DNA of 51,575 bases, filler included, from Dimargaris cristalligena (lineage: Eukaryota), in assembly GCA_003614675.1 (NCBI GenBank). It is 3 parts of 3 records of this genome, joined end to end, with 100 filler letters (N's around TTAATTAATTAA, not from the genome) between each part and the next. Parts side by side here need not be neighbours in the genome. Positions count along the whole stretch, not along the records: positions 17,259 to 34,414 come from ML002820.1; 2 more parts are not named here. One strand, given 5' to 3'. Below are positions 7,197 to 40,449 of this stretch, one piece after another; the stretch's first letter is position 1, and every line of letters starts with the position of its first letter. Below the pieces are notes generated by a model. The model did no database searches and was not told the DNA's origin. It saw nothing but the letters and a program-made list of their open reading frames with translations. Position numbers and translations under genes: made by a program.

Positions 7197-7248
7197 ATAT
7201 TATTACTATTACTATTACTATTATTACTATTACTATTATTACTATTAT
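7197..7248. repeat. (TAT/TAC)n trinucleotide microsatellite
   Basis: Run of 'tattactattactattactattattactat...' seen directly in the sequence. Confidence 0.9.
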
Positions 7249-10118: not shown

Positions 10119-11995
<1,877 letters not shown>

Positions 11996-14133
11996 GATGG
12001 CAATAGTGGTGGTAAAGATTTGTGAGTGGGATTTGGTTTACACCAAAGAAGAGGCTAGGCAATGAATGGCAAACAAAAGCGGGGAACTGGGGTGACTCTA
12101 GGGCAAGGAGGGGGGAGATCAGGGCAAAAAGTCAAGGACAAAAGCGAAGCGAGTAAGATATATGGGGAAGAGGTAGGTGTGGTGGAGTAGAGAATAAGAA
12201 GAGCTGAGAGGGGGGGTATGAGGCAAGGTTTTTGTACTCGGGCGGGTACACACACCCATTTACTATTACTCTCCTTATTACTGCTAGTATGGGCCAATCA
12301 ATTGGGAAAACTCAGAAATGGTGTGACTGGGGAGGCGTATGTATTCTCCAGCCAGCCTGCCCATTTATGCCTATGGTGCGCGTGTATTTCTTCGTTGGGT
12401 GCCGCCTACCTATTAATCCGGTTGTGGTGGTTGGTGGTGGCGAGTGACTGTTAAGCCAGCAAAAGTTGGCGCGGCTGGGGAGAGACGCCTTCTCTGCTAT
12501 ACTAGTTGTTAGTTCGTGTCAATCAGAACCCATTTAAGAAGGCACAAGTAGTGTGATAGCTGGACGGGGACAATCAGGGTACCTCTTTTTCCATAGACCT
12601 CCTCCTCCTCTCCTCTCCCTTCACTCCCACTCGCTCTTTATATTTCAGTAGTAGTCGTCGTAGTAGTAGTAGTCAAGGGCTATTAAGGAATGAGAGAGAA
12701 GTTAACAAGCCCCTCGGAGTAACCACTACTCTTGAGTGAGACTGCCTGCCAATCTATAGTTAGAATCATCCGATAATCCACTCCGCAAACAGCTGGATGG
12801 CCTGCTGCTCAACATGGGTGCGGGTGAAATTCCTTTTTCATTTAAAGTCTTATACAACGGGGCAGACGGGAGAACAGGCACCAGATTGATTTATAACCAA
12901 TAGCAACTGGTCTTCTTTCTTATTTTTTGCTTATGCAGCGTGAATGAACCTCTCACATATATATTGCCTGGATACCAAAATAAAGGGGAATGGCTCACTG
13001 GGGACGACACCCCCGAAAACCAATGCCGAACAGTAAGTCCTGTAAAAAGCCCGGACGGGCTCTAGTCTAGTAGTGGTGGACAATCCGATGGTTTTATTAC
13101 ATCCCATGGAGCCTGATCCTCCTTCGTTCCCACATTATACCCGCTGGACCAACCGGTAGGGGTTCTTATTACACGAGTCTTCCGCCAACTCAGTTGGGGA
13201 GGGGAGATATTCGCCATTGAGGTTGTCGGGATATCTGGAGCTCCCATGATTGGTCGCTAAGTCGCGATGAGACAATTCGTCGGTGGGGGACATGAGGGCG
13301 CCATTGATTACATTATACAACCAGGCTGCACTGTAATCTCTGTGTCTCCTGAAAATTTTCCGGGTTTTTGATTGCACCCGGTTGCTATGGTTATATTCTC
13401 TAACCAATGATACCCGAGGGTGTCTTCAAATACGCCTGCTATTGATAGCGCTGTCAGTTTGCGCCAAACATTCTCTGTAGCAATGCCATTAATAGGAGCG
13501 GCTCCGTCAGGCTGTAGCCACCACTACCTCCCCCAGGTATCTTCCGATTCCAAGACTACGGCCTTTGTCTAGGCCAGTCGGACATTACATACTGGGGCCG
13601 GGGAAAGAATGGGGCGACTCGGCAGATGTGATTAACGAACTATTATGGTCAACTGGTGTGTGACTCGAAAACACAAGCGCCAGTTCGCTCCCAGCAACCA
13701 ATTCATCAACAGTTCGACCAGCAAACCAAAGGGCCCGCAATAACGGCATAATAGTATGGATGAGCACATTCACCCACTCTTCCCACTCAATAAATCACCA
13801 GGACCAATGGGCCCGCCTTTTGGGATAGCAATCAACTGAAATAATGAATACTGACCCCCAATGGGGCTGTGCTTATTTGATTCCCTTTATGGATTACCCA
13901 AAGTCAAGGGTCAAAAGATGTTCTAAGAAAAGTCACAGTTAAAGGATATACACACATTTCAAATGGGGATAGTGAGATATTCTTCCGGTGTTTAGCCATT
14001 AATAGTACAGACTAAAACAAATCATTTAATCCACAGTTGTCCTTCAACAGACCTAATTATTATATATGGTACAAGTAACTATTATTCAAATACACTATAT
14101 ATCCTGCTCTGTTTTTCTTAAACTATACACTGA

Positions 14134-14717
14134 TATTGGACTATCCAATCTACTTTAACCCCATAGGCCTAGATACCCAACCATATTAGGCCATATTGTG
14201 CTATATTAAGCATTCCCATAGTATATCCAGTACTATGGGATTATCCTTATTATATAACACCTCCCCTTCTAGACCCCACCTCTTCACATTAATTACTCAA
14301 GTGCTGATCTGAAGAGTCTTCCAGTTACCATCAAAGTCTTCTGGATACTTACAACTATCTAGATAGCACATTGATCTATACCTTAGTTTAGTAGTATCTT
14401 CCTCCCTGGGATCTCCCTCTGGAGTTGTCCCTACATATATATAACCAGGCCACTTTGGGACCAGTTAGATTCCTTAGCTTATTTCTTACATCCTAGTTTA
14501 TCCCCATAAACTCTATATATGCTTACCCAATTATACTAACTAGTAAGTATGCCCTTTATACATCCCTTATATATCCCTACCTCTTAGCCTTTATTAGTTA
14601 GCACTATACCCCTTACCTAATACTAGTAGCCTACTTAGCTGAGCCTAAGCCCTACCTACTGTTAGAAGCCTATCCTCAGGACCCTTAATAGACTAAGAGT
14701 GGTAAACCTGGGTAACA
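14134..14717 (+). mobile_element. Solo LTR-like repeat, family 1, with a probable 4-bp TSD (CTGA)
   Basis: Ends GGTAACA and starts TATTGG (inferred TG->TA mutation). CTGA at 14130-14133 and 14718-14721. Internal TATATATAA. Homologous to the other three copies. Confidence 0.7.
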
Positions 14718-14721
14718 CTGA

Positions 14722-15903
14722 TAATTCTGATACTAGAATAGTTATTGGGGAGGCTGAAAAGGTAATCAAAATACTTAGTACTAGATAGGTAAATCTCAAT
14801 CAGTATAAAGTGTCAGATAGTTTTAAAAGACTCTTGATGAATATTAGCTAACTGATTGTATGCTATATTATAAAGGGTAATCAGCTATAAATGGGGTACA
14901 ATCCATCCCATTTTTTTCATATAATATAAAATATCTGGTGGTAATTGGGATAAACACATATTTATATAGCCTTAATTCTAATATAGAGGAGGATAAAGGA
15001 ATCATATTTACCACCACAGGAGAGTTGTGTGGCAACCATTATAATACCACATATATTACCTGTAAGTTTTCTCCTCAACTGTTACTTTTGTTCTTCTCTA
15101 CTCAAGCAGCTAAATGTTAGCTACCCATTACCCACACACTGTTATAGGTATATGCCACCAATAGTCTAAGAGTGATCACTCTCTAAACCATCTAGGGAAG
15201 TCTAGTTCACCACCCCAAATGATATTTTCTATTTGGTGGTGTATCCCTATGGGTCCATAGGTGGAAAGCTGGTGTTATTAAGGCCAATACCCTAGTAACT
15301 AGAGAGAAAACCATATGGGTGTTTTTGGAAAATCCCAACCTATAAAATGACTTGAAGGGTCCACTTTCATAACCCCACAGGGGTAGATATGCCATAGTCT
15401 ATCTCTCAGCTTGTGCTGATATTGGAGAAAGAGACTGTTAGAAATCTAATTGAGTATGGATGTAAAATGTTATTTAGAGTAACCATAGTAACTGTGATAT
15501 ACCTATTGTAGATAAGTCTTTATGGTTATCTTCATTTCTTTACCAAGCTTAGTAACATCTGTGTCCACTCACCAGCGGTAATTGTATAAGGTCTTGGAAT
15601 GGATACCTTGAACCCCCAGTCACAGTAACTATACTAACAACAACTATAACCTAGCCATGACTGTAATCTCCAAACACACTCAGTAGAACACTGATGCATC
15701 CAGCATAATTTCCCAGGTTATAATCTTCTTGCATATTCTTTGTCATACCTGTAGCATAGGATCCAACTACATAATAAATTGTTCCAACTGATCCATCATC
15801 ACTGAGAAAAAATGCTTTATGGTCAGCACCACCACTCATGAATTCATTAGTATACAGCATTTTGATATATTCCTTTCAGCAACCATCAAATAAGTGTACA
15901 TTC
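14722..15903. repeat. Degenerate, CpG-depleted repeat relic (family not identifiable)
   Basis: Almost no CG dinucleotides, only short broken ORFs, and lies between LTR-like copies. Confidence 0.4.
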
Positions 15904-16467
15904 TGTTGCCCCTCCTAATCCATCCTAATCCATCCGCTATGATTGCTGTCATAGCAGGCTGTATAGAGCCATATTGAGCCCCGGCCCTAATAAGGCTGGA
16001 CACCAAATACATCACCTTACTGGCTGGACCCCCCCAGAGTTCACACTAATCACTCCTAGGTGATCTTAGTGCCTTCCAATTCCCATGGAAGCCCCCACTT
16101 GTATGAGGACCACCCAGCCCTCCTTATTGTTGCCTTTATTAGGTAATTTCCCCTTGGGACCTCCCCTTTGGAGTAGTCCCCCACATATATATAACTGGGC
16201 CCCCATTGGCACCAGTTAGGACTCAAGCTTATTCTGACCCCCTAGTTTACCTCAATTAACTCTATATATGCTTACCCCCTCATACTGATTAGTAAGTATG
16301 CATCAGTACATGTTCCCCACATACAATTCCACACTTGCTTTATTGGGTTAGTATCTACCCTCCACCTAACACTAGTAGCCCACTTGGCCATGCCCAATGC
16401 CCCGCCTACCATTAGAAGCCTATCCCTGAGACTCTTGACAGATTAAGAGTGGTTAACTTGGGTAACA
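15904..16467 (+). mobile_element. Solo LTR-like repeat, family 1 (more diverged copy)
   Basis: TGTTGCCC...GGGTAACA 8-bp near-perfect terminal inverted repeat and a TATATATAA box. The 3' half aligns with 14540-14717. Confidence 0.68.
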
Positions 16468-16952
16468 ATATGTGGGGCCATACTAAACCAGTGACTAGTG
16501 TATGGTGTAGCTTCCAGTACTTTGGCATATCCCCAGTATTTGGGCTAAAACCCTACATAATCCCAATCAATAATGTCTGCTATATGACCATTGTGGGCTA
16601 GAGTGTTACATGGGGTTAGGCCACCATGGGTAAAAACATTGCAGCTATCAGTAGGTAAGAACTGTAAAACAAAAGTTTGAGATGCAATACTTAAAATGCC
16701 TAGGGGGATATATATAGAAGCTGTGATGTTTCACATTACATATCTAATATATAATCAATTATTGATGTATCTATCTGCATTGCTTCTATAATTATTCAAC
16801 AGTCCATGCCATTACTGCCTTACATTCTTATGGGGTACCCTGGCTTTACTCCAATATGCCATCTTTACACCTTGGCCCCAACAACTACACCAATCTTTTA
16901 TAAAGAATGTCCTCAGTGGATGTGTAATAAAAACAGGCATTATCATTCCCAA

Positions 16953-17158
16953 TGTGGTGAACTTACCACATTTTTTACCTACTTTTATTTTTTAATCCAT
17001 TTTTCGCACTTATCGGATGTACGCCCCTGGCGAGTGAATGAGCCCCTGCCCCTGCCCCTGACGAGTATAGTCATTTTTCTACCATTTTCATTATTATCTT
17101 CTTTTTCCTATTATTATATTTTATACCCTTGACTTTGATGCACCCCTGCCCCTGGCCC
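16953..17158. repeat. Family-3 repeat end followed by (GCCCCT)n motifs, running into the gap
   Basis: Inverted copy of 1-83. 'gcccctgRcgagt' occurs twice (17023, 17054), with short GCCCCT tandem runs. Confidence 0.65.
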
Positions 17159-17258
17159 NNNNNNNNNNNNNNNNNNNNNNNNNNNNNNNNNNNNNNNNNN
17201 NNTTAATTAATTAANNNNNNNNNNNNNNNNNNNNNNNNNNNNNNNNNNNNNNNNNNNN
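17159..17258. other. Artificial assembly spacer (100 nt, six-frame stop linker)
   Basis: N-run with an embedded TTAATTAATTAA; same design as the second gap. Confidence 0.97.
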
Positions 17259-20200
17259 TCCCATACATATATTGTGTAAAATCTTATACAGTTGGGTTGA
17301 AGTTCACCCATATGAATAATTATGCGGGAAATTTATTCCCAACCAGTAATGATTATCTCATCCACCGGGCATTTCGTTTTACAGCCTAGTTGAATCTCTC
17401 CTATACCAGTTTTCAAAAAATAAGGGTATGTTGTATCTAAATAGACAATACCAGATTAACAAATAGTACTTTTCTATTTGTAGAATTGGCCATAGTTGGC
17501 AAGAGTTTCAAGCAATCAATATGCAAATGATTTCAATCGGGCTTGGTAATAGTTGCCAGTTTAGGTAACGAAGTGACCTCTTTAAAACCCAAATATATAC
17601 AGTGGGACACGAATAGTTCCTTTATATTATAGGATCTGGAGTAACTCACGCATATGCCCGCAAAATACATAGAATATTTGACTCTACACCCTCAAAATGC
17701 TGCCGGTCCAGATATATTCACTATTGAGAAGGGATTGCAAGAATTGGTGCGGATGGAGCTTAGAACAGAGACCGCAAGCACTGGGAGAATATTTAGGATT
17801 TATAAATATGCCCAAGTTACCCTTGAGATTTCTAAAAATCACTGCCTTAAATAGCGGCCTTATTATTTCCGGTGGGCTTATTCTGTTGGCTGGGCAGCGC
17901 ATGAGGAGCAATATTGCTGTTAGATCGGGCAGTCTGGGGATTAGTATTGGGGCAAGTAGCCTGGGTAGTGGTGTTGAGGCGGGTAACTTGGGGGTGGGGT
18001 TGGAGCGTCCAGGATTGTTGTTCGAGGTAATACCTTCAACAGTGTACTAAATTACGTCGGGCATGTCCTGCTGGCCAGACTGTAGCCGAGGAGAAGTAAC
18101 GGGCTGGGCAGCATTGTTGTTTAAACCAGTACCTTGAACACCAGCCTTATTACCAGTGACCCTACTCTGCTGGTCGGATGGGAGCTGAGGAACGGTTTTG
18201 CTGTTGAAACGAGTATTCTGAACAGTGGCCTCATTTCCAGTAGACTTGCTCTGATGACCGGGAAGCTCCTAAGGTATAGTGCTGGAGCAGGTGGGATTGT
18301 TATTGGAATGGGTACCTTGGGCAGCGGTCTTGGTCTACTGGCCAAATTGCACCTGAGGAGTGGTGTTGGAATGGATGGGAATGTTGTTAGAACTGGTACC
18401 CTGGACACCGGTCTTGTTGATGGCGGACTTGTTCTGTAGACCAGGAAGCGCCTGAGGCACGGTGTTGGCGCGGATAAAATGTTTGGGGATTTGGGTGGTG
18501 GTCTGAAAAGCGCTAACTGGGGTGGTGGTCAGTGATAATAGCACACTAGGCGTCCAAAATCAAAACCTTCTTAGTCGATATGAAAGCCATAGTGAGTTGG
18601 ATGGGATATGATGGAATGTAATGGAAGATTGGGGTATGTTAATAGTCCGGCAAATAAGTAGGAATACTAATGTGGGTATAAGCTGCAAAAAGGAGGTGAG
18701 GAATGTGATGGTAGTGTTGATAAGGTTTTTAGAGAGGACGGTTCCCACTCTTTTATATCTAAATTGGCAAACCCCTCGACATGCTGCTGTGCCAATGTTA
18801 GGCTATGACTTTAAGCTCCCTAGTGCATTTTCTTGGCTATGTCCAATTAATTAATACATCCCCAAAGAAAGATATACGTCCACGTCCACGTCCACATCCC
18901 CATACCCATATAACTTGTCTATCCCAGTGCTCTGATGGCCGACGGGTCCAATTTTAACACCCTAGCCCTCCTCCTTTTACATTCCCCTCGTCCAACTTTA
19001 CACCGTGTATTTTTAATCAATTTGTTCGAGTACTATCCTCAGTGATAGACCTGCTGTTGAAAATAACTTGCTATAAAATGGGCAGGGATTTTTCTCACTC
19101 AGGTCACCGTCGCCTCCAGTCTTCTCATTTTTAAAATCTGCTGGCAGGTTATTGAGCCACGCGATCCCTTTGATGATATTTATATTTCTCCAACTCAGTG
19201 TCTAAGCCTAGCGTAGATTACCACAAGTACAAAGTGTACATACTAAAAGGAAAATCAGCTGTATCGCAGTATTGATGGTAGATAATACTTTCAGGCAATC
19301 GTACATCGATTGATTGCCTTTATCCACATGTGGGCCATTGGGTGAACTAGCGATAGGGGCTCCGTGCGAGTGGATAATTACCTTTCCATGGTGAAATTTG
19401 GCTATCCAGGGATTTTCGGCCATTCGCTAGCGACTGGCGGTCTATCACGGGTATTGCCTACCCATTCCCTAGTCAGTGCTTATCTACTAATAGGTCCGTT
19501 TGGTTTACTTTACACTGACCAATGGAAGGAATGGGGAGTCGAACATTTGGGATAGTTTCAACCCAACTATTTAGTGCTTTTTATGATATATTTAGGTAAT
19601 TATAAGGGAGGTTCAAATTTAACAGGTGATTTTTTCCTCATCTAACATATATTTTGAGATATAGCTGTGCCGAACCATTACCATAAGGGTAATAAAGTGT
19701 ATCCAGGATATTCCAGGGATTCGATCATATTAGATCATTAAAGGGACATCGATCAACAAAGACAGCATATAAATGTGTATTTCAAAACAACTGTAAAGGG
19801 CATCGTAGGGTAAATTTATAGCTAAGGGGAATTTGTATAATATCCAATAAAACCAACTTCATTAAACAACGGTCCCATTATACAAATAGGCCAAGTCTAT
19901 ACCCCATAATAGTCAGTAATATTTTTGCCATACAACCCATGAATCAATATGGGTCAAATACAGTGCAACTGTATAAGTATTGGAATAAATTTGGATGGTA
20001 AACTGCGCGGTATTTATTTTTAACCAGTATAATTAGTCCATGAGGCGGAGTTGTCGATACGTAATCAAGACGATTTGAACTCTTAATTCGAAGTATAGGG
20101 AGGCGCCACCAAGTATTTATCCATAAACACAAGCAGGCCGCACAAATCGGAAAAGCGGCCACTTATTGGAATGTAGCTATAGACAGCACGAAATTGCTAT

Positions 20201-22238
20201 AAAAGTATCAAATATACACCGATTGTACAGTTGTATTAGAAAGTAGGGAATACAAAACATACTGGATGATGTGGAGTATTGCCTGTTACCATGGCCGGTT
20301 TCAATGGGACTAATACAAAGTGTATTTAGTAAATAAAGGTCTGAAATTACCTCTTTGACTGGAATACATTATTCAGACTAGTAAAATAAATGGTAGTATC
20401 GCTTTTTTAATCAGCCAGTTCAATAATTTCCATCGAAACTAACAAAGGGTTTCATCCAAAGTCCTTATATCACTCACACAGCCACTATGGCATTAACATT
20501 ACTCTTTATCCTATTCTACCTCCATAACTTACATATACCTACTTACTTTTCAATATCCATCAAACAAAACCGTCAATATAAATAGGACATATTCCCACAT
20601 TGAAAAGCAACTTTATTCACAAATTTATTAGATGAAAGAAAATTAAAATATACATTTAACCTGCTCATTGGCAGGCACCACTTTGTATTTGATTATTCAG
20701 TGGCTGGTACAATTGGCAAGCCCCTGTCTGCATCAGAAAGGGGCTTATCACGTTCAGTGGTTGGGTAATCCCTCCCCAGGACAAATAAGGGATTACCAAT
20801 AACTCCCAATTGGGAGTGGATATAAGATTTTTTGATCTGCATTACCACGGGAAGCGATCCATCGAGTGTTGGACGGGTCATTGGGCTTCTGAAGATAGGC
20901 CTTAATGTGACCATTGGAAGCGGGGGGATATTGAGGTAATGGTAGAGTAAACAAAGAGGGGATACAGGCGATATTGTGATAAGTTTTGTTCAAGGGCTGG
21001 AACATCCAAGTAATTAAAAAATGACGAGTGTATATTTGGGAAGGCCTCCAGTCTGCTTTTTATAGTGTGCTTAGCCAAAGGTTTTATTAACCAAGTACTG
21101 GATAGGGTGACCCTACTACCCCCATCAAAGTAAACTGAAGTTACAGTTCTATTCCATAGACTTATTAAGGAGACAATAACCTAGTTTTGTATGGGTATTT
21201 GGAATGGCACGAGGAGTTGTATGCATGTCCATCCATTCCCTTTGTTGACAATTCATATTACAGAATAGAAGCCAACAATAAGCCATTTAGTATTAAACTG
21301 AAGCACTGTGGTATAATTAGGCACAATGTATTGATACTACGACCTAATCCCCTACTTATGTCACCCGGTCTTGGGATATTCCCATAACTGGGGTTTCTTG
21401 GCTGGTGCTCTTTTCTACAATACTTGCTATTTGTGACGACTATTTCGAATGGCGCCCTACAATACCGTGCCTATTTTCACACATAGATATTCAATTCAGC
21501 GAATATTATAAGACCCTGCAGTGGATAAGGGAGCATGCCATATTTGGGGAGGTTAATCCTGGTTAGTCACTACAGTGTACTATCAAAGGATCCAATTGTA
21601 CTCCGCCCGACTAACAGGGACTGCCGTCCAAGTTTTCGCAGCCTAGCTACAACATGGACAATGCCCAATGCCGTTACCTTGATAGGAGGTTTGAAGCCTT
21701 CCGGTCTTCAGTGATGCATTGTAGCTATAGATGGACCGGTAACTGCAAATGACTGTCTAAGTACAATTGTGATCACCCTAATTAAGTTACTATTCATTAA
21801 CTATTTTTGAATTTTGACGCACGCAATAGTTAGGAGAGGTATTAATATGTCTGGTGTTTTATATAGTGGCTATATTATGCCTTCATGGGTTGGACACTGC
21901 ATTGTTATCCCGGACTAGTCTTCGCGTCATACCATTGATGCCACAATTTTTCCGAATGGCAATCTCATTGTTGGGACGTTGGTATACTTTAGCGGATTTG
22001 TGTATTTGAATAGGGATATACCCACCCTTCAATTTTACCATTGCTTCGCCTACCTCCTGGGTCACTTTGTGCTAGTGGGGCAGATATTATGGTAACTGCC
22101 AGCCATATAGGGTATGGCAAAGTTGATTAATTAGAAGATACTTGCGCGATGATGAAGGTATTTAAACCAACTTGAAACAATTGGGCCTGAATTCTCAGGA
22201 TGGCTTGTTTCTTGTCCTTAATATGGAAGGGCATTCCC
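17259..22238. repeat. Left arm of a ~5-kb inverted repeat
   Basis: Every ORF in this interval has an identical mirror ORF in 29435-34414; paired coordinates sum to 51673. Confidence 0.97.
17847..18590 (-). pseudogene. Pseudogene of a secreted Q/N/T/P-rich repeat protein (left-arm copy)
   Basis: Mirror of 33083-33826. Confidence 0.6.
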
Positions 22239-22649
22239 AGCCAATATCATACCATAATTTTAATACCATCGGGATTTTATTTCATCCGATTGCATATGGC
22301 TTTAGATAACAGCTATATGGGAATAAAAGCGGTTGATTATTTTTAGCTAGGTATGCTTGTCTAGTCAATCCGATTGAATCTCCCCTCATATCCACCTTAG
22401 ATGTCACAATCTAATATGGCTCCCACCCGTATTTTAAACCCACATTTGAATACAGGATAGTTTGTTAAATTACTTTAAACACTTTTATACATGATTCATC
22501 TATTAAATTAAATACAGCGAACCCAGGCCTATACCATAGCACTATCCGACTTGGAATTAATCGGTCTAAGTCCACTGCAATTAAATATTATATACGTCTA
22601 CAAATAAAATAGAGAACACCAGCGAATGAATAATCAACAAAATCAAAAG

Positions 22650-24162
22650 TTATTTAAGTTCAATGGTCCAGATGACGGGTTCCGACGTATCAACCACGAT
22701 TTCGGGTGCATCTGGGATATTGGATGTGCTTAGCAGACCGTTGAAGGAAGTTTCGGTGTTATCTATCGACGGAATACAACAAACCGATCAGTTTGGATGA
22801 AAAATATAATTAAGCGAAGAGAAGAGAAGGGTGGGGTATACTAAATCTATCATAAGCGGGCAAATACGAGTCACTTACAGCCAGCTTTGGTTAAGCGCTA
22901 ACAAGCCCGCCGTTTTCCATGTACCTCAGTATGCGTTTATAAAGAAGGGAACTTACCAAGATTCCACCGGAGCCCCGTTGTGGTGACCGTGGCCGAGGAG
23001 ACGCCCAGGGGAATAATCCCACAGGCAGGCTGGCTTTTGTACCAGTCGCATTCGATTTGATTTTTACCCTAGAAATGGCCACCAGTATATGCCAATTGTA
23101 ATAATATGGCGCATTCAAATAAGGATCATTAAACCATTAGTTGGTTTCCCGTAGAATCCCTTTCTAGCAATGCCTTGATCCGAGGGGAGTTAGGGGAGGC
23201 GTAATGGGTCTTCTGTGATTGCCAGTAGTCGAGTAGAACGCGAATTCTGGACACGAATTAGTTGGCAAGCTTACCTTGGGAAGTAAAAACGTGATTGATT
23301 CCGGATTGGCCAGGTATATCTGTTTGGAGGCTCCGAAATTAAAGAGCACGTAAAGACTTGACATGGTTTGGTCAAGTCGGCCCCCAAGATTACCGTAGGC
23401 AATGACGGTCATCTAGTGGGGAGGGTCAGTGGTCAAATATAAGGGTTTTAGGGAATGGGTATCAATGAAGGATAGGTAATAGCGATGTGGGTGCATTTAC
23501 AATATAGCCAGTGCGAGTTGGTGGCCATGTCCGCTATTCGTATGACCAGCACAGCCCTATTCAACCAGAATTCGGATAGTGAGGAATGTCAATCATCAGA
23601 GTGGTTTACTTACGGCTGAATCAGTCCACCCGTGGCGCACTTGCAATTGATCGATCCAATTGAGGCATTTCATGAAATCGGTGGTGTCCTGATCCCGAAC
23701 GTGGTTAATCTCGGTACCCCGATGAGCGAAGTACTGGGAAACATCGGGACGAATCGAATCCATATCTCCGCAGATACCATCGGGAATGTATTGCTCTATC
23801 CGACGGGTGGTGGCCTGCTTAGGGTCACTATCATGATCGGCACACTTTCGAATAGTGCTCTCACTGTTAGCAGCATGGCCACCACCAGCAGTGTCGCTAT
23901 CGGTGGATTTTAGGGGTTTGGGGCTAGAGGAGGGAGTGGCCGTGGGGGAGTGGAAGGAGTCGTAGAGGCGATTGGCCGCCCCGTCTGCGCAGATGCGGAG
24001 GTCGGCGCGTCGCCATAGGCTCATGAAGAGGGAGTCGGCATGCTTCAGTGGCTGGTTCAATAGAAGGAGGACCAGACGGCCGGAAGGTGGGGAACGGGGG
24101 CAGTAGAGACAGCGGCTGGGGTAATGGTAGAGGGTTCGGAGACCTGGCGCGGCAGAAGCCAT
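22650..24162 (-). CDS. THI80: Thiamine pyrophosphokinase; exons 24162-23614, 23412-23275, 23068-22957, ~22761-22650
   Basis: Motifs LLLLNQP, RICADGAANRLYD, PDGICGDMDSIR, DQDTTDFMKCL, GGRLDQTMS, CGIIPLG..TTTGLRWNL and LLSTSN. GT-AG junctions. Confidence 0.95.
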
Positions 24163-24982
24163 GGTGAATAACTGGGAGGATAGCTGAGCTCTAAAAGTAA
24201 GAGGGGATACTAAGGAGGGAGTGGAAGTGCAATGGAAGGTGTGGCGGACTATGTTGGAGGAAAAGGGGCTTACTGGAATGAGTTTATGAAAGGGTTTGGG
24301 GGAATACCAAGTTAAAGGAGGTCGCATTTGGGAGAGACGGCTGTTGGGGGGTACAGGCCTCCTTGTATGCCTTTCAGCCACCGCTGTCATTTGTTACTTT
24401 ATAGTTCTTGCCCTAAAGTTCTGCTACATACTAACTAATCCCTCCTATACAGGCCACTGGAACTACGCACGTTGGATAGTAGACAGAATGAGGAGGGCGG
24501 TAAAAACAGATATCCCACCATGGGAGAGGGGATTGGTGGGCTAGCCACCACAAAGCATTTTTTCCAATGGAAGCGATTAGAGTGAGAGAGGCCTCCTCCT
24601 CCCTCTTATGGCATACAATCAGAGGCAGTGGTATAATGCGCATACACCCAGCCAGCACAGTGGTATACAAGTACAGGCCCTGGGCCACCGAGTAAAGGGT
24701 TCGCTTGCGGTTCTTTTCCTTCCTTCCTTTCGCTTCTTTTGTATCTTTGTGTGCCGTGGTCGTTGTGCTCTCCATTCCCCCGGATCTCCACCGGTGGCGC
24801 TGTATATACCGTTCCTCCTTCTCTGAATCCTTTCCCCGCTCCTTTTCATCTCCGCCTTTCCCCTGTTTTCCTCGTCCAAGGCCACTGCTTCCCGTTCCCA
24901 CTCACAACCCTCGTTTCCCGCCCTCATCTCTCGCTGTTTCCACCCCACACATATTCCGGCGCGACCAAGTCCGATCCCCACT

Positions 24983-26843
24983 ATGACTAAAACCCAATTC
25001 GCATGTAAGTGCCCCCTTTCGGCCAAAACTATATTAAATAAAAAGAAAGAGAAATAGTACTATCCACTTCGTCTACAGTCCTATTTTCCCCTCTGCCCTT
25101 GTCGCCCTTTAAATCGACCTCGAGAACTTACACCCCTCCCCCGAGTCTCATCCGCCATACCCCTCCATCTTCTCTGCATTTACCTCCTTTTTAATCTATT
25201 TAGATCGCTCCCTGAACGAGATTGGCCTTGTGACTGGCCCCCCGTCCCTCCAAGATGTCGTCGGATTCACCAAGCCCACCGGCAATAACCGCGCCATAAA
25301 GTACAGTCCTGATGGTCGGCTCTTTGCCTGGGCCTCAACGACCGCTGTGGAAGTTATGGACGTCGCCTCGGGCCAGCTCCTCCAAACCATCGCCCGGCCC
25401 AATGTGATGGAAATTGATTTCTCCCCCCGGGGTACCTACCTACTCACCTGGGAACGCTACATCAAACCCGAGTCGGGCCCTTTGCCCACCAACATGCTAA
25501 TTTGGGAAACGACCACTGGCTCTCAAATGGGTGCCTTCACCCGTAAGTTGCAGTCCAGCTGGGGATTCCAGTGGACTCCGGACGAACAATATTGTGCCCA
25601 GTTGGCCCCCAATGAAGTTCAGTTCTTTGATCCCACTAATTTCGGCAAAGGTATCCACACCCGGCTATCCATGGATGGTATCCAGTCCTTCTCCCTGTCC
25701 CCCGGTCAGTCGCCCTCCGTGGCCGCCTTTGTGCCCGCCCAGAAGGGTCAGCCCGGCCACGTCCGCCTTTACTCCATTGGTAATTTCCGCCAACCGGTAT
25801 GCCAAAAGACCTTCTTCAAAGCCGATTCGGTGAAGATGATCTGGAATACTCTGGGCACCAATTTGCTCATTTTGGCCTCCACCGACGTGGATCTGACAGG
25901 AAAGTCCTACTACGGTGAAACGAACCTCTACTATCTGACGGTAGCCGGCAACTTCGACTGTCACGTGGTGCTAGACAAGGAAGGGCCCATCCATGACGTG
26001 GCCTGGAACCCCAATCCCGAAATCAAAGAATTCGCCGTCGTGTACGGCTACATGCCCGCCAGAGCGGCCCTGTTCGATCGTCGGGCGAACTTGATTCACG
26101 ATTTCGGTACCGCCCCGCGCAACTTTATCGGGTTCAACCCGCAGGGTCGCCTGGTGGCCATTGCCGGGTTCGGTAATTTAACCGGTCAGATGGACATTTG
26201 GGACCTCAAAACCCACAAGAAGCGAGTCACCATCAACGCCAGCAACTCGACGACTTGTGAATGGTCCCCCGACGGCCGGCACCTGATGACCTCGACCCTG
26301 TCTCCTCGGCTGCGGGTCGATAACGGCATTAAGGTATGGCACCACACCGGATCTCTCATGTTCCACCGGTTGATCCACGAACTCTACCAGGTGGCGTGGC
26401 GTCCTCTGCCGGTCGCCAACTATCCCGACCGGTCCGCCTTGTCGCCCCCACCTCCGCCATGCGCCTCGGGAACGGGGACCAACGCTGACGCGAAAACCCC
26501 GACCCGTTCAGTGGCCTCCGTGGGTACGTACCGACCCCCACATGCGCGTGGTACCATGACCCCGCCGTCGTTCAAACGGGAGGATGAAATCCAACGGTCC
26601 AACGGAAAATCCTCTTTGTCTGTGGATCCTAGTTCGCCGAATGCCCCCGATGTGTCCCAAATGACCGAAACGGAAAAAACCACGCGTATCCGCAACATCA
26701 ACAAGCAGCTCAAACAAATCTCGGCCCTTAAGAAGCGGGAAGAAGCTGGTGAGCATTTGGAGCCGGAAAAGTTGGTTAAGATGCAAAAGGAACCAGCCCT
26801 TAAGCTAGAGCTGAAGGCCCTGAAATCCAAGAAACCCCAGTAG
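24983..26843 (+). CDS. EIF2A: Eukaryotic translation initiation factor 2A (WD40 beta-propeller); exons 24983-25004, 25204-26843
   Basis: Motifs KTFFKAD, TDVDLTGKSYYGETNLY, KEGPIHDVAW, VVYGYMPA, AGFGNL and SPRLRVDNG, plus a C-terminal IRNINKQLKQI coiled coil. The intron GTAAGT...TTTAG yields MTKTQFAYRSL. Confidence 0.95.
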
Positions 26844-27961
26844 TTCAAACATGTTAATGGGTAGATTATGGGTCTGCCAAGCTGATGTAAAAAATGTCAG
26901 TGGCTGGACAGAGGCGCTATAGGAGGGCGGAATAGTGAAATGCGGTTCCCAATTGTTGGCGGATTTTCTAATTTTCCTATAAATTTTTTCGATCCGTTGG
27001 TCCCATTTCCGTCCTATTTTGTACCTTTCATCCCTCCTGACCTAGGGCGCCTTTTCGTCTACTCTTTTCTAACCCAACGTAATGCTTTCCATATCCAACC
27101 CCCCGCCCTCTTATACCTTATCATTTGGGTTAAAACGTGACTTCCGCACGATCGGCGTTGGCTTACACACTTAAGCACTTGAATATCCCGCTACTTATAC
27201 CACCCCCCCCTAAAAACAAAGAAAAGCAAACTAAAAACATGGCCTTTTAATTTGTTGATATACATGTTCGATTATTTTTTATTATTTTCATGATCATACA
27301 CGTTACTGCCGCCCCTCCTCTTCAGTTATCAATAAATTTCGGGACATTTAACCTTTATTTAATATTATGGTATGGCTCCAAAACAATACATAGAAGAATC
27401 AGTCACCTACTTGCTGGCTGGTCTAAATGGGTAATATTTTTTGGTCCTGAGTTACATCTATTCCCAGGGTTATTTAGTGTCATCTGATTTAAGTCGAGCC
27501 ACATAATTTGGGCTGGGCATGCTAACCCTCTAAAGGTGGAATTTGGACTGTTATTATGGCTGAAAGCTGTCACAAGCCAGTTGGAGATGAGTTGCACATT
27601 TCAAATAGCGGGGAGTTACTAACCCTTAGGTCTCTTATCTACTAGACCAGGCTGTAGAAGCGCTGTTAAACTATTATCTATCCCGGCTCCCTCAATTTGC
27701 GATCGGTTTCTTTCGGATAGCACGTTGAAAAGACCCTTAAGTCGAGACTGAGACATACACTCCTCCATTCCATCTCATTCCATAATATTTCCCTTGCTTG
27801 GACGACTCTCGAGCTTTTGTATTCACGCGCATTACTATAAACAAAGGCTGTTCATTCGTTTCGTCCCGAAAGCCAGGCGTCATTGCCTCCACTTTGAAGT
27901 CTACCCCCCTCTCTATATATATATATAGGACTAGACCAAAAGGGACAGTAGAACCAGGGCT

Positions 27962-29242
27962 ATGTCACCTCAGCAACGACCTCCTTCGCAGCGTGCCGTC
28001 GGTAAAGCACCGGCCTCCACAGCTCCACCGACCCCATCCTCCAACTATAATTCCACCGCCGGCCAGGAACCCGCTCGCAGCCGCCACGAGGACCCCGCGA
28101 CTAGCCGCCCGCCCGCCGCCCCGGGCTCATCGTCATTAGGCCAGCGTATGGTCGCTTCCACCCAGGGACTGCTAAGTGCCGCCGCGGCCCGGTCGTCGAT
28201 TGGACTGGCCCAAGGGCTACAGGCGGCGATACCAGGAGGCAAAGCAGGCCCATCGACGGGAGGGGGGGAAGCCAGCCGTCACCATAGTGACCATGCAGCA
28301 GTCGAGGCGGAATGGAAGACTGCCGTAGGGGTAACCGAAGGAAAAGGAAAAGGGAGTAGGGGTAGAATCCTAGATCAAACTGTACGTCTCACTAACCCGC
28401 GCAGCCTTTTTACTCCAAACTCACCAGCTGGCCTGGAGACTGGTACGACCATGTCGACTATGCTTGCGATGGATGCGGCCCCAGAATTGCCATCCCCACT
28501 ACCTCTCCGGGGCGGAGCAGTAGGGGGATGCGAGGCCGACCATTATTGGCATGGTTCCCCAGCATCCAACAACCCCTTCAGCCTTCCCGAAACCCCACTA
28601 TCCCTGAAGTCATGGCCGTCGTCACCGTCATCGCCACAACCGCCGCCGCCTTGGGCGACGGCTCCCTCCTCCAACCGGTCCAGAACGGACCCAGGGCAGT
28701 CAATGTTTGAATCTTCGGGCGGGGGTGATATTATGGACTTCCTGCGAAATCCACGATCTTTGCATACCGGCGATTATGACGCCGTATTCCATACCAACGA
28801 CCTGGAGTTACAGCGCCGCCAACATAACCGTGAAGTGCCCCTATCGTCGCCATCTACCGAGCCCATGTACTCACACCTTTCAAATTCCTCTGCCTTCCGG
28901 CAGGGAGTTGGCCGAGGTTCGGGCCAAGTCTTAGAAGTGCTTACCAGTGCCGATATGGAGCTGGCCGTCCACAGTTTTCTTTCCCGCCGAACCGACTATA
29001 CGGATGCCGTGTATGGTACCGGTGATCAGCATGTACCTGCCTCTCCTTTCACTATGCAGGGTGAATATGATACCGGTCGATCGGCAGTGGTGATCGATGC
29101 TACCGCCGATACCCTCCAACAATTAAATCTGGAGGAAGCATGGTCGGGCTCGCAAAGTCCACTCACTAAACCAATGAGCCCTAAACAAGAGGCCCTCGAA
29201 CGGTTAGCCATGTTCCAGAAACAGTTGCGACCACGATTATAA
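27962..29242 (+). CDS. Hypothetical protein, 426 aa, largely low-complexity
   Basis: Long GC/CpG-rich ORF with an ATG start and a TATA-like run at ~27915-27927. No family recognised with confidence. Confidence 0.75.
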   Translation: MSPQQRPPSQRAVGKAPASTAPPTPSSNYNSTAGQEPARSRHEDPATSRPPAAPGSSSLGQRMVASTQGLLSAAAARSSIGLAQGLQAAIPGGKAGPSTGGGEASRHHSDHAAVEAEWKTAVGVTEGKGKGSRGRILDQTVRLTNPRSLFTPNSPAGLETGTTMSTMLAMDAAPELPSPLPLRGGAVGGCEADHYWHGSPASNNPFSLPETPLSLKSWPSSPSSPQPPPPWATAPSSNRSRTDPGQSMFESSGGGDIMDFLRNPRSLHTGDYDAVFHTNDLELQRRQHNREVPLSSPSTEPMYSHLSNSSAFRQGVGRGSGQVLEVLTSADMELAVHSFLSRRTDYTDAVYGTGDQHVPASPFTMQGEYDTGRSAVVIDATADTLQQLNLEEAWSGSQSPLTKPMSPKQEALERLAMFQKQLRPRL

Positions 29243-29434
29243 ATTCCTGTAGATAAATCGTACGGGAGAGGTGCAGTCTACACTGTATAATGAAAACCCC
29301 GAATTATGAGACACATACTCCCGAATAAAAAAATAACTATCCACCCTTATTCCCCTATACCTGTTATTTAAACCCGGATATACTTATATTGGGTATCGCC
29401 CATATCTTATTAAAAACATGGCATATTATCGGCC

Positions 29435-32400
29435 GGGAATGCCCTTCCATATTAAGGACAAGAAACGAGCCATCCTGAGAATTCAGGCCCAATTGTTTCA
29501 AGTTGGTTTAAATACCTTCATCATCGCGCAAGTATCTTCTAATTAATCAACTTTGCCATACCCTATATGGCTGGCAGTTACCATAATATCTGCCCCACTA
29601 GCACAAAGTGACCCAGGAGGTAGGCGAAGCAATGGTAAAATTGAAGGGTGGGTATATCCCTATTCAAATACACAAATCCGCTAAAGTATACCAACGTCCC
29701 AACAATGAGATTGCCATTCGGAAAAATTGTGGCATCAATGGTATGACGCGAAGACTAGTCCGGGATAACAATGCAGTGTCCAACCCATGAAGGCATAATA
29801 TAGCCACTATATAAAACACCAGACATATTAATACCTCTCCTAACTATTGCGTGCGTCAAAATTCAAAAATAGTTAATGAATAGTAACTTAATTAGGGTGA
29901 TCACAATTGTACTTAGACAGTCATTTGCAGTTACCGGTCCATCTATAGCTACAATGCATCACTGAAGACCGGAAGGCTTCAAACCTCCTATCAAGGTAAC
30001 GGCATTGGGCATTGTCCATGTTGTAGCTAGGCTGCGAAAACTTGGACGGCAGTCCCTGTTAGTCGGGCGGAGTACAATTGGATCCTTTGATAGTACACTG
30101 TAGTGACTAACCAGGATTAACCTCCCCAAATATGGCATGCTCCCTTATCCACTGCAGGGTCTTATAATATTCGCTGAATTGAATATCTATGTGTGAAAAT
30201 AGGCACGGTATTGTAGGGCGCCATTCGAAATAGTCGTCACAAATAGCAAGTATTGTAGAAAAGAGCACCAGCCAAGAAACCCCAGTTATGGGAATATCCC
30301 AAGACCGGGTGACATAAGTAGGGGATTAGGTCGTAGTATCAATACATTGTGCCTAATTATACCACAGTGCTTCAGTTTAATACTAAATGGCTTATTGTTG
30401 GCTTCTATTCTGTAATATGAATTGTCAACAAAGGGAATGGATGGACATGCATACAACTCCTCGTGCCATTCCAAATACCCATACAAAACTAGGTTATTGT
30501 CTCCTTAATAAGTCTATGGAATAGAACTGTAACTTCAGTTTACTTTGATGGGGGTAGTAGGGTCACCCTATCCAGTACTTGGTTAATAAAACCTTTGGCT
30601 AAGCACACTATAAAAAGCAGACTGGAGGCCTTCCCAAATATACACTCGTCATTTTTTAATTACTTGGATGTTCCAGCCCTTGAACAAAACTTATCACAAT
30701 ATCGCCTGTATCCCCTCTTTGTTTACTCTACCATTACCTCAATATCCCCCCGCTTCCAATGGTCACATTAAGGCCTATCTTCAGAAGCCCAATGACCCGT
30801 CCAACACTCGATGGATCGCTTCCCGTGGTAATGCAGATCAAAAAATCTTATATCCACTCCCAATTGGGAGTTATTGGTAATCCCTTATTTGTCCTGGGGA
30901 GGGATTACCCAACCACTGAACGTGATAAGCCCCTTTCTGATGCAGACAGGGGCTTGCCAATTGTACCAGCCACTGAATAATCAAATACAAAGTGGTGCCT
31001 GCCAATGAGCAGGTTAAATGTATATTTTAATTTTCTTTCATCTAATAAATTTGTGAATAAAGTTGCTTTTCAATGTGGGAATATGTCCTATTTATATTGA
31101 CGGTTTTGTTTGATGGATATTGAAAAGTAAGTAGGTATATGTAAGTTATGGAGGTAGAATAGGATAAAGAGTAATGTTAATGCCATAGTGGCTGTGTGAG
31201 TGATATAAGGACTTTGGATGAAACCCTTTGTTAGTTTCGATGGAAATTATTGAACTGGCTGATTAAAAAAGCGATACTACCATTTATTTTACTAGTCTGA
31301 ATAATGTATTCCAGTCAAAGAGGTAATTTCAGACCTTTATTTACTAAATACACTTTGTATTAGTCCCATTGAAACCGGCCATGGTAACAGGCAATACTCC
31401 ACATCATCCAGTATGTTTTGTATTCCCTACTTTCTAATACAACTGTACAATCGGTGTATATTTGATACTTTTATAGCAATTTCGTGCTGTCTATAGCTAC
31501 ATTCCAATAAGTGGCCGCTTTTCCGATTTGTGCGGCCTGCTTGTGTTTATGGATAAATACTTGGTGGCGCCTCCCTATACTTCGAATTAAGAGTTCAAAT
31601 CGTCTTGATTACGTATCGACAACTCCGCCTCATGGACTAATTATACTGGTTAAAAATAAATACCGCGCAGTTTACCATCCAAATTTATTCCAATACTTAT
31701 ACAGTTGCACTGTATTTGACCCATATTGATTCATGGGTTGTATGGCAAAAATATTACTGACTATTATGGGGTATAGACTTGGCCTATTTGTATAATGGGA
31801 CCGTTGTTTAATGAAGTTGGTTTTATTGGATATTATACAAATTCCCCTTAGCTATAAATTTACCCTACGATGCCCTTTACAGTTGTTTTGAAATACACAT
31901 TTATATGCTGTCTTTGTTGATCGATGTCCCTTTAATGATCTAATATGATCGAATCCCTGGAATATCCTGGATACACTTTATTACCCTTATGGTAATGGTT
32001 CGGCACAGCTATATCTCAAAATATATGTTAGATGAGGAAAAAATCACCTGTTAAATTTGAACCTCCCTTATAATTACCTAAATATATCATAAAAAGCACT
32101 AAATAGTTGGGTTGAAACTATCCCAAATGTTCGACTCCCCATTCCTTCCATTGGTCAGTGTAAAGTAAACCAAACGGACCTATTAGTAGATAAGCACTGA
32201 CTAGGGAATGGGTAGGCAATACCCGTGATAGACCGCCAGTCGCTAGCGAATGGCCGAAAATCCCTGGATAGCCAAATTTCACCATGGAAAGGTAATTATC
32301 CACTCGCACGGAGCCCCTATCGCTAGTTCACCCAATGGCCCACATGTGGATAAAGGCAATCAATCGATGTACGATTGCCTGAAAGTATTATCTACCATCA

Positions 32401-34414
32401 ATACTGCGATACAGCTGATTTTCCTTTTAGTATGTACACTTTGTACTTGTGGTAATCTACGCTAGGCTTAGACACTGAGTTGGAGAAATATAAATATCAT
32501 CAAAGGGATCGCGTGGCTCAATAACCTGCCAGCAGATTTTAAAAATGAGAAGACTGGAGGCGACGGTGACCTGAGTGAGAAAAATCCCTGCCCATTTTAT
32601 AGCAAGTTATTTTCAACAGCAGGTCTATCACTGAGGATAGTACTCGAACAAATTGATTAAAAATACACGGTGTAAAGTTGGACGAGGGGAATGTAAAAGG
32701 AGGAGGGCTAGGGTGTTAAAATTGGACCCGTCGGCCATCAGAGCACTGGGATAGACAAGTTATATGGGTATGGGGATGTGGACGTGGACGTGGACGTATA
32801 TCTTTCTTTGGGGATGTATTAATTAATTGGACATAGCCAAGAAAATGCACTAGGGAGCTTAAAGTCATAGCCTAACATTGGCACAGCAGCATGTCGAGGG
32901 GTTTGCCAATTTAGATATAAAAGAGTGGGAACCGTCCTCTCTAAAAACCTTATCAACACTACCATCACATTCCTCACCTCCTTTTTGCAGCTTATACCCA
33001 CATTAGTATTCCTACTTATTTGCCGGACTATTAACATACCCCAATCTTCCATTACATTCCATCATATCCCATCCAACTCACTATGGCTTTCATATCGACT
33101 AAGAAGGTTTTGATTTTGGACGCCTAGTGTGCTATTATCACTGACCACCACCCCAGTTAGCGCTTTTCAGACCACCACCCAAATCCCCAAACATTTTATC
33201 CGCGCCAACACCGTGCCTCAGGCGCTTCCTGGTCTACAGAACAAGTCCGCCATCAACAAGACCGGTGTCCAGGGTACCAGTTCTAACAACATTCCCATCC
33301 ATTCCAACACCACTCCTCAGGTGCAATTTGGCCAGTAGACCAAGACCGCTGCCCAAGGTACCCATTCCAATAACAATCCCACCTGCTCCAGCACTATACC
33401 TTAGGAGCTTCCCGGTCATCAGAGCAAGTCTACTGGAAATGAGGCCACTGTTCAGAATACTCGTTTCAACAGCAAAACCGTTCCTCAGCTCCCATCCGAC
33501 CAGCAGAGTAGGGTCACTGGTAATAAGGCTGGTGTTCAAGGTACTGGTTTAAACAACAATGCTGCCCAGCCCGTTACTTCTCCTCGGCTACAGTCTGGCC
33601 AGCAGGACATGCCCGACGTAATTTAGTACACTGTTGAAGGTATTACCTCGAACAACAATCCTGGACGCTCCAACCCCACCCCCAAGTTACCCGCCTCAAC
33701 ACCACTACCCAGGCTACTTGCCCCAATACTAATCCCCAGACTGCCCGATCTAACAGCAATATTGCTCCTCATGCGCTGCCCAGCCAACAGAATAAGCCCA
33801 CCGGAAATAATAAGGCCGCTATTTAAGGCAGTGATTTTTAGAAATCTCAAGGGTAACTTGGGCATATTTATAAATCCTAAATATTCTCCCAGTGCTTGCG
33901 GTCTCTGTTCTAAGCTCCATCCGCACCAATTCTTGCAATCCCTTCTCAATAGTGAATATATCTGGACCGGCAGCATTTTGAGGGTGTAGAGTCAAATATT
34001 CTATGTATTTTGCGGGCATATGCGTGAGTTACTCCAGATCCTATAATATAAAGGAACTATTCGTGTCCCACTGTATATATTTGGGTTTTAAAGAGGTCAC
34101 TTCGTTACCTAAACTGGCAACTATTACCAAGCCCGATTGAAATCATTTGCATATTGATTGCTTGAAACTCTTGCCAACTATGGCCAATTCTACAAATAGA
34201 AAAGTACTATTTGTTAATCTGGTATTGTCTATTTAGATACAACATACCCTTATTTTTTGAAAACTGGTATAGGAGAGATTCAACTAGGCTGTAAAACGAA
34301 ATGCCCGGTGGATGAGATAATCATTACTGGTTGGGAATAAATTTCCCGCATAATTATTCATATGGGTGAACTTCAACCCAACTGTATAAGATTTTACACA
34401 ATATATGTATGGGA
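29435..34414. repeat. Right arm of a ~5-kb inverted repeat
   Basis: Reverse complement of 17259-22238. The only mismatch I spotted is 29467 vs 22206; this was not an exhaustive alignment. Confidence 0.97.
33083..33826 (+). pseudogene. Pseudogene of a secreted Q/N/T/P-rich repeat protein (right-arm copy)
   Basis: TATAAAA at ~32915 and ATG at 33083. Signal-peptide-like MAFISTKKVLIL/VLLSLTTTPVSA (one frameshift). Repeats of PQxLPGxQNKxxGNKxxVQG, with stops at 33336, 33402, 33624 and 33824 and a second frameshift. Confidence 0.6.
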
Positions 34415-34514
34415 NNNNNNNNNNNNNNNNNNNNNNNNNNNNNNNNNNNNNNNNNNNNTTAATTAATTAANNNNNNNNNNNNNNNNNNNNNNNNNNNNNN
34501 NNNNNNNNNNNNNN
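34415..34514. other. Artificial assembly spacer (100 nt, six-frame stop linker)
   Basis: N-run with an embedded TTAATTAATTAA. Confidence 0.97.
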
Positions 34515-40303: not shown

Positions 40304-40447
40304 ATATGGGAGTAGTTTAACAAGGCTGTATAACGAAAAATCTACTTGATGAGGCAAATATTACTAGTTGAAAATAAACATCCCACCGATTTTCCCATGC
40401 ACATACCAGTTAAAACCTTATACAGCCAAGCTGAACTTCACCCATAT
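40304..40447. mobile_element. ~144-bp palindromic MITE-like element, copy 2
   Basis: atatgggag..gctgtataac / cttatacagc..ttcacccatat; core homologous to 1872-2015. Confidence 0.65.
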
Positions 40448-40449
40448 AC

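Follow-up and report, generated by a model that had tools for sequence, protein, structure and literature searches.

We analysed a window of 51,575 nucleotides from Dimargaris cristalligena (assembly GCA_003614675.1), in which the middle contig, C613, has the form R-U-R': a core (U) with three genes lies between two inverted arms (Table 1). In a pairwise comparison, positions 17259-22238 (R) matched the reverse complement of 29435-34414 (R') over 4,980 bp with a single differing base, T at 22206 and C at 29467, as the original prediction had recognized in outline. Arm homology extends inward by another 106 bp, to 22344 and 29329, at only 65% identity. The arms had also been described as running into gaps at exactly the mirrored base. 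We found the mirrored ends, but the apparent gaps are 100-nt linkers between separate contigs and the unit is the whole of C613, so that the mirrored ends are contig ends. None of 40 other whole contigs of 6.5-10 kb from the same assembly had end-to-end inverted arms; the R-U-R' layout is far beyond chance and rare within the assembly, and its absence from these controls shows that it is no routine artefact of this assembly.

Table 1 Features of contig C613 and its linkers (positions in the window).
Feature	Position	Strand	Remarks
Contig-joining linker (44 N, TTAATTAATTAA, 44 N)	17159..17258	.	Outside the locus; C612 is 1-17158, C613 from 17259
Final 55 bp of a young MITE-like repeat of 144 bp (ATATGG...CCATAT)	17259..17313	+	Contig starts within the MITE
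Outer left arm	17259..21702	+	Twice in assembly, single depth in run X5; mirror image doubtful
Left relic, unclassified interspersed repeat family	17314..22344	-	Residual minus-strand coding signal; older MITE-like piece at start
Left stem, 536 bp	21703..22238	+	Double depth in X5; contains the sole arm mismatch, 22206
Diverged inner end, left relic	22239..22344	+	65% identity with its right counterpart; 56-64% with four further copies of the family
THI80, thiamine pyrophosphokinase	22650..24162	-	Pfam TPK_catalytic; four coding exons
THI80 exons	24162-23608, 23412-23275, 23068-22958, 22766 to stop	-	Stop position read from sequence
eIF2A	24983..26843	+	PF08662; short first exon by eye, main exon from about 25206
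Orphan ORF, 426 aa, low-complexity	27962..29242	+	No Pfam match; only a 99% same-species match
Diverged inner end, right relic	29329..29434	-	Sequence comparison
Right stem, mirror of 21703-22238	29435..29970	-	Arm comparison, X5 depth
Outer right arm	29971..34414	-	Probably the left arm's graph edge reused, possibly a real isolate-specific copy
Contig-joining linker	34415..34514	.	N/TTAATTAATTAA linker, 100 nt

All three genes predicted for the core are present, two of them with Pfam matches (THI80 and eIF2A), and the outermost two face outward as proposed, THI80 toward the left arm and the orphan toward the right. Neither Pfam nor Atlas (best score 0.86) assigned the orphan to a protein family. 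The core is single-copy and includes the sole eIF2A match in the assembly. In a second D. cristalligena assembly the three genes share one 7,355-bp contig, within 5 bp of the size of the core plus twice 77 (7,196 + 2 x 77). The original prediction had pointed to THI80-eIF2A synteny in related genomes as a check, and we found the two genes adjacent in four of the five other Dimargaritales species compared. The THI80-eIF2A pair in the core is native and conserved within the Dimargaritales. The pair sits on contigs of 31-110 kb in T. parasiticus and D. simplex and of 10.6 and 23.9 kb in D. verticillata, so that no conserved, isolated 7-kb cassette is seen. Contigs of 7.6 and 7.8 kb in D. xerosporica and D. 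parvispora, considered as evidence for such a cassette, are ordinary for these assemblies given reported N50 values of 13.5 and 7.3 kb. We also considered paired sex loci as an explanation for the two copies of the gene pair in T. parasiticus and D. simplex; the copies are accounted for by genome-wide duplication, since BUSCO duplication reaches 66% and 59%, respectively, according to PMC9866270.

The arms are not unique sequence. A search that scored 40 of 204 candidates gave at least 54 matches, with 65-80% identity in the long matches, and a further search on the family returned 70 matches, none in an open frame over 243 aa. The arms belong to a multi-copy repeat family and are decayed. Over the inner 106 bp they share only 65% identity, as between unrelated family copies, which argues that the arms began as two old insertions. 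The original prediction saw no intact transposase or reverse transcriptase in the arms, and Pfam likewise gave 0 families over six read-through frames of the arm. A phmmer search with frame +0 of 20100-22340 gave 0 matches, and the likely coding frame was later placed on the minus strand; transposase or recombinase signal was thus absent from the arms by Pfam in six frames and by phmmer in one, probably wrong, frame. A 160-aa piece of a paralog had no usable Atlas match, and searches for KDZ and NDC10_II came back empty with their controls silent too, so that absence of either is not demonstrated.

At each outer end, C613 stops on exactly the last 55 bp of a MITE-like repeat whose pattern had 230 matches in the assembly; among 13 other contigs that were examined and end in the MITE, five carry 53-55 bp of it. 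Only one end among 13 MITE-ended contigs, that of C89, passed an empty-site test (score 100 versus 16-22). C89 is a 46-kb, gene-bearing contig whose last 640 bp are single-copy except for the MITE. Through the MITE the left arm continues into another, tandem relic copy on C89, and a comparable paralogous pair lies on C693. C89 was the sole outer flank identified, and the assembly yielded no leftover contig for the right flank. C1675 was rejected for that role, as its terminal stretch also occurs in C693 and C1675 is 63-87% alike to R.

These results bear on a second proposal, that the three genes are cargo of a composite transposon or of a giant TIR-bounded element. Two inverted copies of one repeat family do enclose the genes, as this idea would have it. 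Against it, the core is single-copy with the only eIF2A match, and its THI80-eIF2A adjacency is common to four other species; the left arm runs on past the MITE into a tandem relic, as the pair on C693 does; the outer ends are a contig break in a MITE and not element termini with a target-site duplication; and the searches described above gave no transposase signal, two of them with silent controls. We regard the cargo reading as largely refuted and give it hardly any credence.

We then compared the locus across the short-read contigs of four of five sequencing runs: X1, X2 and X3, which are possible sources of the assembly, and X5, from an independent sample and study. Contig depth here is one figure per contig and not a copy number. 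In 4/4 runs, both ends of the core meet one shared stem, with core contigs starting at 22209 and ending at 29464; both core/arm junctions are thus supported, including in the independent sample, and the inverted repeat is real. The same junctions speak to the suggestion that an amplification chimera folded back at chance complementarity and that there is no real repeat. Such chimeras are mostly inversions with joined sites less than 10 kb apart, as described in PMC1855051, and the depth profiles of X2 and X3 are amplification-like; separately, contig C2136 resembles an inverted join of two loci. The recurrence of 22209 and 29464 in a different sample and study, together with double depth of the stem there, refutes a chimera as the origin of the stem, unless some amplified material is common to X5 and the source sample, and we consider it extremely improbable.

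In X5, the stem has a depth of 297.3 (versus 146.7), the outer arm 125.7-147.9 and the core 183. Double depth is confined to 21703-22238 (536 bp), X5 contigs break at 21703-21732, and the remaining depth is too low to accommodate another near-identical arm (148 of 373 bp). An X5 contig of depth 148.1 was considered as the second arm and fits a C1862-like paralog; the contig that joins at 21703 lies outside the listed X5 pieces, which leave out 125. The possible-source runs look different, as all three have an unbroken contig over 21703-21732 with no branch. In X1 the arm has a depth of 137.9 versus 73.5 for the core, and the arm/core ratio of 1.9-2.5 is what two real arms predict. From the left arm across the core, depth falls from 1836 to 873 to 12.5 in X3 and from 59.9 to 44 to 19.7 in X2, where the inner arm (59.9) comes close to what the two core pieces add up to (63.7). 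Because depth varies 70-fold within the single-copy core in X3, depth ratios from the possible-source runs carry little weight. The arm-versus-core depth comparison originally suggested came out divided: X1 and the 536-bp stem in X5 agree with two copies, and the outer arm in X5 does not.

The stem is identical or nearly so between the two sides, although bubble removal could mask a few differences, whereas the adjoining 106 bp are 65% alike. Compared with the window, X5 differs at 2/536 stem sites, read from a collapsed short-read graph. The arms are more alike than expected from their age.

Our preferred reading, which we hold to be somewhat the better bet, is a short repeat that gene conversion made identical and the assembler then lengthened. 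Two ancient copies of one decayed family lie head to head around the native THI80-eIF2A-orphan block. In one or more repair events, one relic would have served as template for the other, starting about 106 bp in from their ends, and gene conversion would thus be the cause of the near-perfect inverted repeat of about 0.5 kb that we observe. Both core ends would enter this shared stem in the short-read graph; the true right flank, thinly covered in the window's uneven data, may have been lost, and the one remaining outward path was probably written on both sides to the next break, the 55-bp MITE tail. As in an assembler-extended repeat, the near-identical arms reach either end of the contig and stop there at a break in the graph. 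A shorter repeat is seen in one other sample (X5), and the possible-source runs are unbranched. The 5-kb arms are probably inflated in this way; the original caveat that one graph edge can serve both arms names the likeliest cause of their length. One SPAdes setting is k=55. The 55-bp ends look like those of a k=55 graph, which counts against an artefact of the DISCOVAR type. In favor of the preferred reading, PMC6692504 judged arms in yeast assemblies that reach the contig ends, 118 and 195 kb long and one mismatch apart, to be shorter real repeats lengthened by the assembler; it ties the artefact to DISCOVAR and says that it is absent with SPAdes.

Alternatively, though with clearly lower probability, the isolate of the window does have arms of 5 kb. 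The right flank would then have been overwritten recently from the stem, by a long gene conversion or a break-induced copy, with the tract ending in a MITE or far beyond the contig, and the other sample would keep, or have been cut back to, the 536-bp stem; passive inversion of the core would be possible in this case too. The unbranched contigs over 21703-21732, the X1 ratio and the X2 sums favor such arms, as do the lack of an alternative right flank in the assembly and the absence of the layout from all 40 control contigs. Since only C89 fits as a flank, however, a real second arm would need either to stop inside the 144-bp MITE or to continue through C89, 46 kb of single-copy sequence. The supporting ratios are weakened by the depth swing in X3, and in a non-haploid isolate, as PMC9866270 suggests for D. 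cristalligena, the change would be needed on all homologues.

Whichever length the arms have, an inverted repeat around the core in two samples means that the core could invert through recombination: the two relics face opposite ways and have about 0.5 kb of identical sequence in common, which might allow an accidental flip of the genes. Under our preferred reading, the stem would permit an occasional crossover and so a passive, unregulated inversion of the 7.2-kb core, leaving promoters unchanged. We consider such passive inversion plausible.

A programmed flip/flop locus, as first proposed, is a far stronger claim. Here the stem would be kept identical through use, with regulated recombination setting THI80 (thiamine activation) or the orphan beside a silencing site at a chromosome end (telomere) or in silent heterochromatin, as in FF1 loci. 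A near-perfect inverted repeat surrounds a short core in two samples, and the mismatch at 22206, set against at least 77 identical bp spanning that position in the second assembly (if its 7,355-bp contig comes from a k=77 collapsed short-read graph), gives a weak hint of repeated exchange; speculatively, the rightward fall in depth would fit a nearby chromosome end. The contents of the locus argue otherwise. None of the 13 HMG-box matches in the assembly lies on C613, and Pfam placed none of the three core proteins in a mating-type family, although the lineage's own mating-type genes may be of another family, the orphan conceivably among them; the core holds housekeeping genes and an orphan, the repeat consists of transposon-like relics and not of gene sequence, no recombinase was found in the arms, and T. 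parasiticus, D. simplex and D. verticillata show no conserved isolated cassette. This part of the original prediction is not supported, and we judge a regulated switch very unlikely. Were it real, a zoopagomycete mycoparasite would have built a position-effect switch of a non-mating-type kind from dead transposon DNA.

Taken at face value, the locus suggests that long-diverged relics made identical over about 0.5 kb could allow a housekeeping block to invert; few genomes are available from this lineage. The locus also urges caution with mirror-image contigs that show one mismatch and arms to both ends, as these are possibly real short repeats stretched by assembly. Its importance would be much greater if both orientations occurred under regulation, and nothing here points there.

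A literature search, with subscription papers outside its scope, found no published description of this locus. Ectopic recombination between inverted transposon copies causes inversions, and here, too, two opposite copies of one family bracket host genes; unlike in those cases, the copies are old (65% at their ends), and their identity comes from a later tract and not from recent transposition. The FF1 flip/flop loci of Ogataea polymorpha, Pachysolen tannophilus and Ascoidea rubescens, as covered in PMC6692504, have cores comparable in size to this one, with 8 kb in P. tannophilus, and the single inverted repeat flanking the invertible region that marks FF1 is found here in 4/4 runs (536 bp in X5). 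Unlike FF1, the locus has no MAT genes that we could find and no known silencing site beside an arm. The assemblies of Cyberlindnera saturnus, Starmera quercuum and Kregervanrija fluxuum described in the same source likewise have a unique core with arms 0-1 base apart that reach the contig ends, and there, as here, independent data give a shorter repeat or a bare core contig; the yeast cores hold MATa and MATalpha, whereas here we found a relic repeat, a k=55 signature and no mating-type gene. The FF locus on Saccharomyces chromosome XIV differs, in the description given in PMC9731477, in its 4.2-kb repeat with expressed sporulation genes, its occurrence in eight species and its two orientations seen by long reads, compared with a decayed relic repeat in one species, known in one orientation, here. 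The two loci are alike in having a non-mating-type block between inverted repeats homogenised, here probably, by gene conversion, with inversion that is, or here would be, unprogrammed.

We confirmed the layout underlying the original prediction: contig C613 consists of two near-identical inverted arms (R on the left, R' on the right) around a core that is single-copy in the assembly (G000) and carries THI80, eIF2A and an orphan 426-aa ORF. The reading of this layout as an invertible locus was supported in part. What had been taken for gaps bounding the arms are linkers of 100 nt: the unit spans the entire 17,156-bp contig, and the adjacent parts of the window come from different contigs. Protein matches identify the organism as Dimargaris cristalligena. 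Of 40 further complete G000 contigs measuring 6.5-10 kb, none has arms running end to end; one has a 316-bp internal inverted repeat (99% identity).

Coordinates of arm and repeat features (window positions unless a contig is named)
Feature	Position	Remarks
Arms R and R'	17259-22238; 29435-34414	4,980 bp each
Single arm mismatch	22206/29467	
Stem (inner arm)	21703-22238; 29435-29970	
Inward limit of arm homology	22344/29329	106 bp further inward than the arms
Putative old coding, left arm, minus strand	20558-20858; 17858-18758	synonymous bias, few stops
Most conserved relic-family block	~20650-20770	exact 25-41-bp matches among copies
Short hairpin	near 20717-20746	inside the most conserved block
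CpG-poor repeats	14001-17158; 1-2000; 40001-42000	observed/expected 0.08; 0.23; 0.36
Opposed relic pair on C89 (L046, L047)	C89 30443-32203; 43762-45559	second such pair, around HSP60-like gene and neighbours
MITE-like repeat, example (L030)	L030 1905-2048	144 bp
Inverted repeat L167	C1300 170-485; 1785-2098	316 bp, 99.4% identity, 1.3 kb apart
Inverted repeat L173	C1065	1,439 bp, identity <95%

Five short-read runs contain the core, four from one sample, possibly the assembly source, and one (X5) from a different sample and study. We compared contigs of X5, X1, X2 and X3 over 17300-29467. In all four, core contigs start at 22209 and stop at 29464 and the arm contig stops at 22238; both ends of the core therefore lead into a single stem. 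Relative to the window, the X5 core carries 13 substitutions and small insertions. X5 contig depth, which like that of the other runs does not equal copy number, is 125.7-147.9 in the outer arm and 183 in the core, and doubles only across the stem (297.3, against 146.7 in adjoining sequence); the leftover depth in the neighbouring bin amounts to 148 of the 373 bp required by a second near-identical arm. The proposed check of arm against core depth thus upheld an inverted repeat of ~536 bp in X5, and not one of 5 kb. X5 also excludes, for the stem, a pure amplification chimera of the kind described in the available part of PMC1855051. In a second D. cristalligena assembly, the contig with the three core genes measures 7,355 bp. 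The core (7,196 bp) and two overlaps of 77 bases add up to within 5 bp of this length, so the break at either end of the core recurs in this assembly.

We lean slightly towards the 5-kb arms being an assembler extension of a shorter repeat. Short-read assemblers can drop a thinly covered right flank from the graph where the left arm is deeply covered. A real long arm specific to this isolate is possible but rather doubtful. In its favour, contigs run unbroken across 21703-21732 in each of X1, X2 and X3, the X1 arm/core depth ratio is 1.9-2.5, the X2 inner arm (59.9) approximates the sum of the X2 core pieces (63.7), and a search of G000 found no leftover right flank. However, coverage in X1, X2 and X3 is very uneven, falling from 59.9 to 44 to 19.7 in X2 and, in X3, from 1,836 over the arm down to 873 and 12.5 inside the single-copy core, and only one flank was found for two arms. 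The pattern supporting assembler extension, near-identical arms reaching both contig ends around a unique core, matches an artefact described in the accessible portion of PMC6692504, where arms with 0-1 mismatches reach contig ends around a unique core and independent assemblies show short repeats or the bare core; that portion attributes it to DISCOVAR and reports it absent with SPAdes.

R opens inside a MITE-like repeat of 144 bp, of which it keeps the last 55 bases (17259-17313). This family is young, with 230 pattern matches in G000, imperfect terminal inverted repeats, and ATAT at both ends of all 14 aligned copies. Many G000 contigs are broken at this repeat, and 5 of 13 other contig ends stopping in it carry 53-55 of its bases, presumably the mark of a graph break at an assembler setting of k=55. 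An empty-site comparison with a paralogous tandem relic pair on contig C693 gave the 46-kb contig C89 a score of 100 and the remaining 12 ends scores of 16-22, and we took C89 as the outer flank. The last 640 bp of C89 have no second near-identical copy, the MITE excepted, and the MITE-R junction is found in G000 nowhere but at either end of C613. Since a single flank was found for the pair of arms, the second one, if real, must stop within the MITE or continue through all 46 kb of C89.

On sequence similarity, we assign R to a decayed interspersed repeat family. A genome search gave at least 54 matches (40 of 204 candidates scored), the long ones 65-80% identical, and a 160-aa probe gave 70; no Pfam family was found in any frame of the arm. 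Synonymous bias and scarce stops suggest that the left arm was once coding on its minus strand. Because several family copies stop near 22344, this position looks like the element's end. The inner ends of the two relics show 65% identity to each other and 56-64% to four further copies; being as diverged as other copies, they indicate that the arms began as two independent old insertions and that arm identity is younger than both. Between the two copies of the opposed pair on C89 there is no match of at least 88% over 80 bp. Elsewhere, the 2.1-kb locus L013 (contig C2136) joins, in opposite family orientation, one piece matching C1795 and one matching C1627, both at 99.5% identity, and may be a chimera or haplotype variant; C1743 and C2204 have 1,695 identical bases in common. 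R has a CpG observed/expected ratio of 0.59 and the core one of 0.87; the lower values of the CpG-poor repeats, some of them inverted copies inside contig C612, suggest methylation-driven decay.

The locus thus comprises two old inverted relics and a native three-gene core, with the identical stem beginning 106 bp from the relic ends. Gene conversion or template switching between the relics probably produced the stem, and a crossover within it would turn the 7.2 kb around as a side effect. As originally predicted, such an inversion would swap no promoters; each of the three genes would stay whole, its promoter included. Position 22206, where the two arms differ in the window, has T in the left arm and the X5 stem contig and mostly C in family copies; if k=77, the length of the 7,355-bp contig means that the arms of the second assembly are identical there. 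This contrast weakly hints at more than one exchange.

THI80 and eIF2A are neighbours in 4 of 5 other species (D. xerosporica, Dispira parvispora, Dispira simplex and Tieghemiomyces parasiticus), as judged from adjacent or near-adjacent accessions and equal contig size rather than DNA; in D. verticillata they lie on two contigs, with eIF2A partial. Since the pair adjoins in these species, it is native, and not cargo of a giant TIR-bounded unit as had been suggested. Their doubling in two species reflects genome-wide duplication, according to the available part of PMC9866270. No family was found for the orphan protein. Four thiamine pyrophosphokinase (TPK) orthologues (P0123, P0126, P0129, P0136) are labelled 'cAMP-dependent protein kinase subunit' at source, and their Pfam domains are TPK.

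We found no description of this locus in the published literature outside subscription papers. It is highly improbable that the locus is a regulated switch acting by position effect next to a chromosome end. The locus differs from giant TIR elements in both termini and cargo, and from programmed FF1 switches, the mating-type parallel first proposed, in that C613 has no HMG-box match. It would work, if at all, like the FF polymorphism of Saccharomyces chromosome XIV, for which the accessible part of PMC9731477 proposes inversion as a by-product of repeat exchange.
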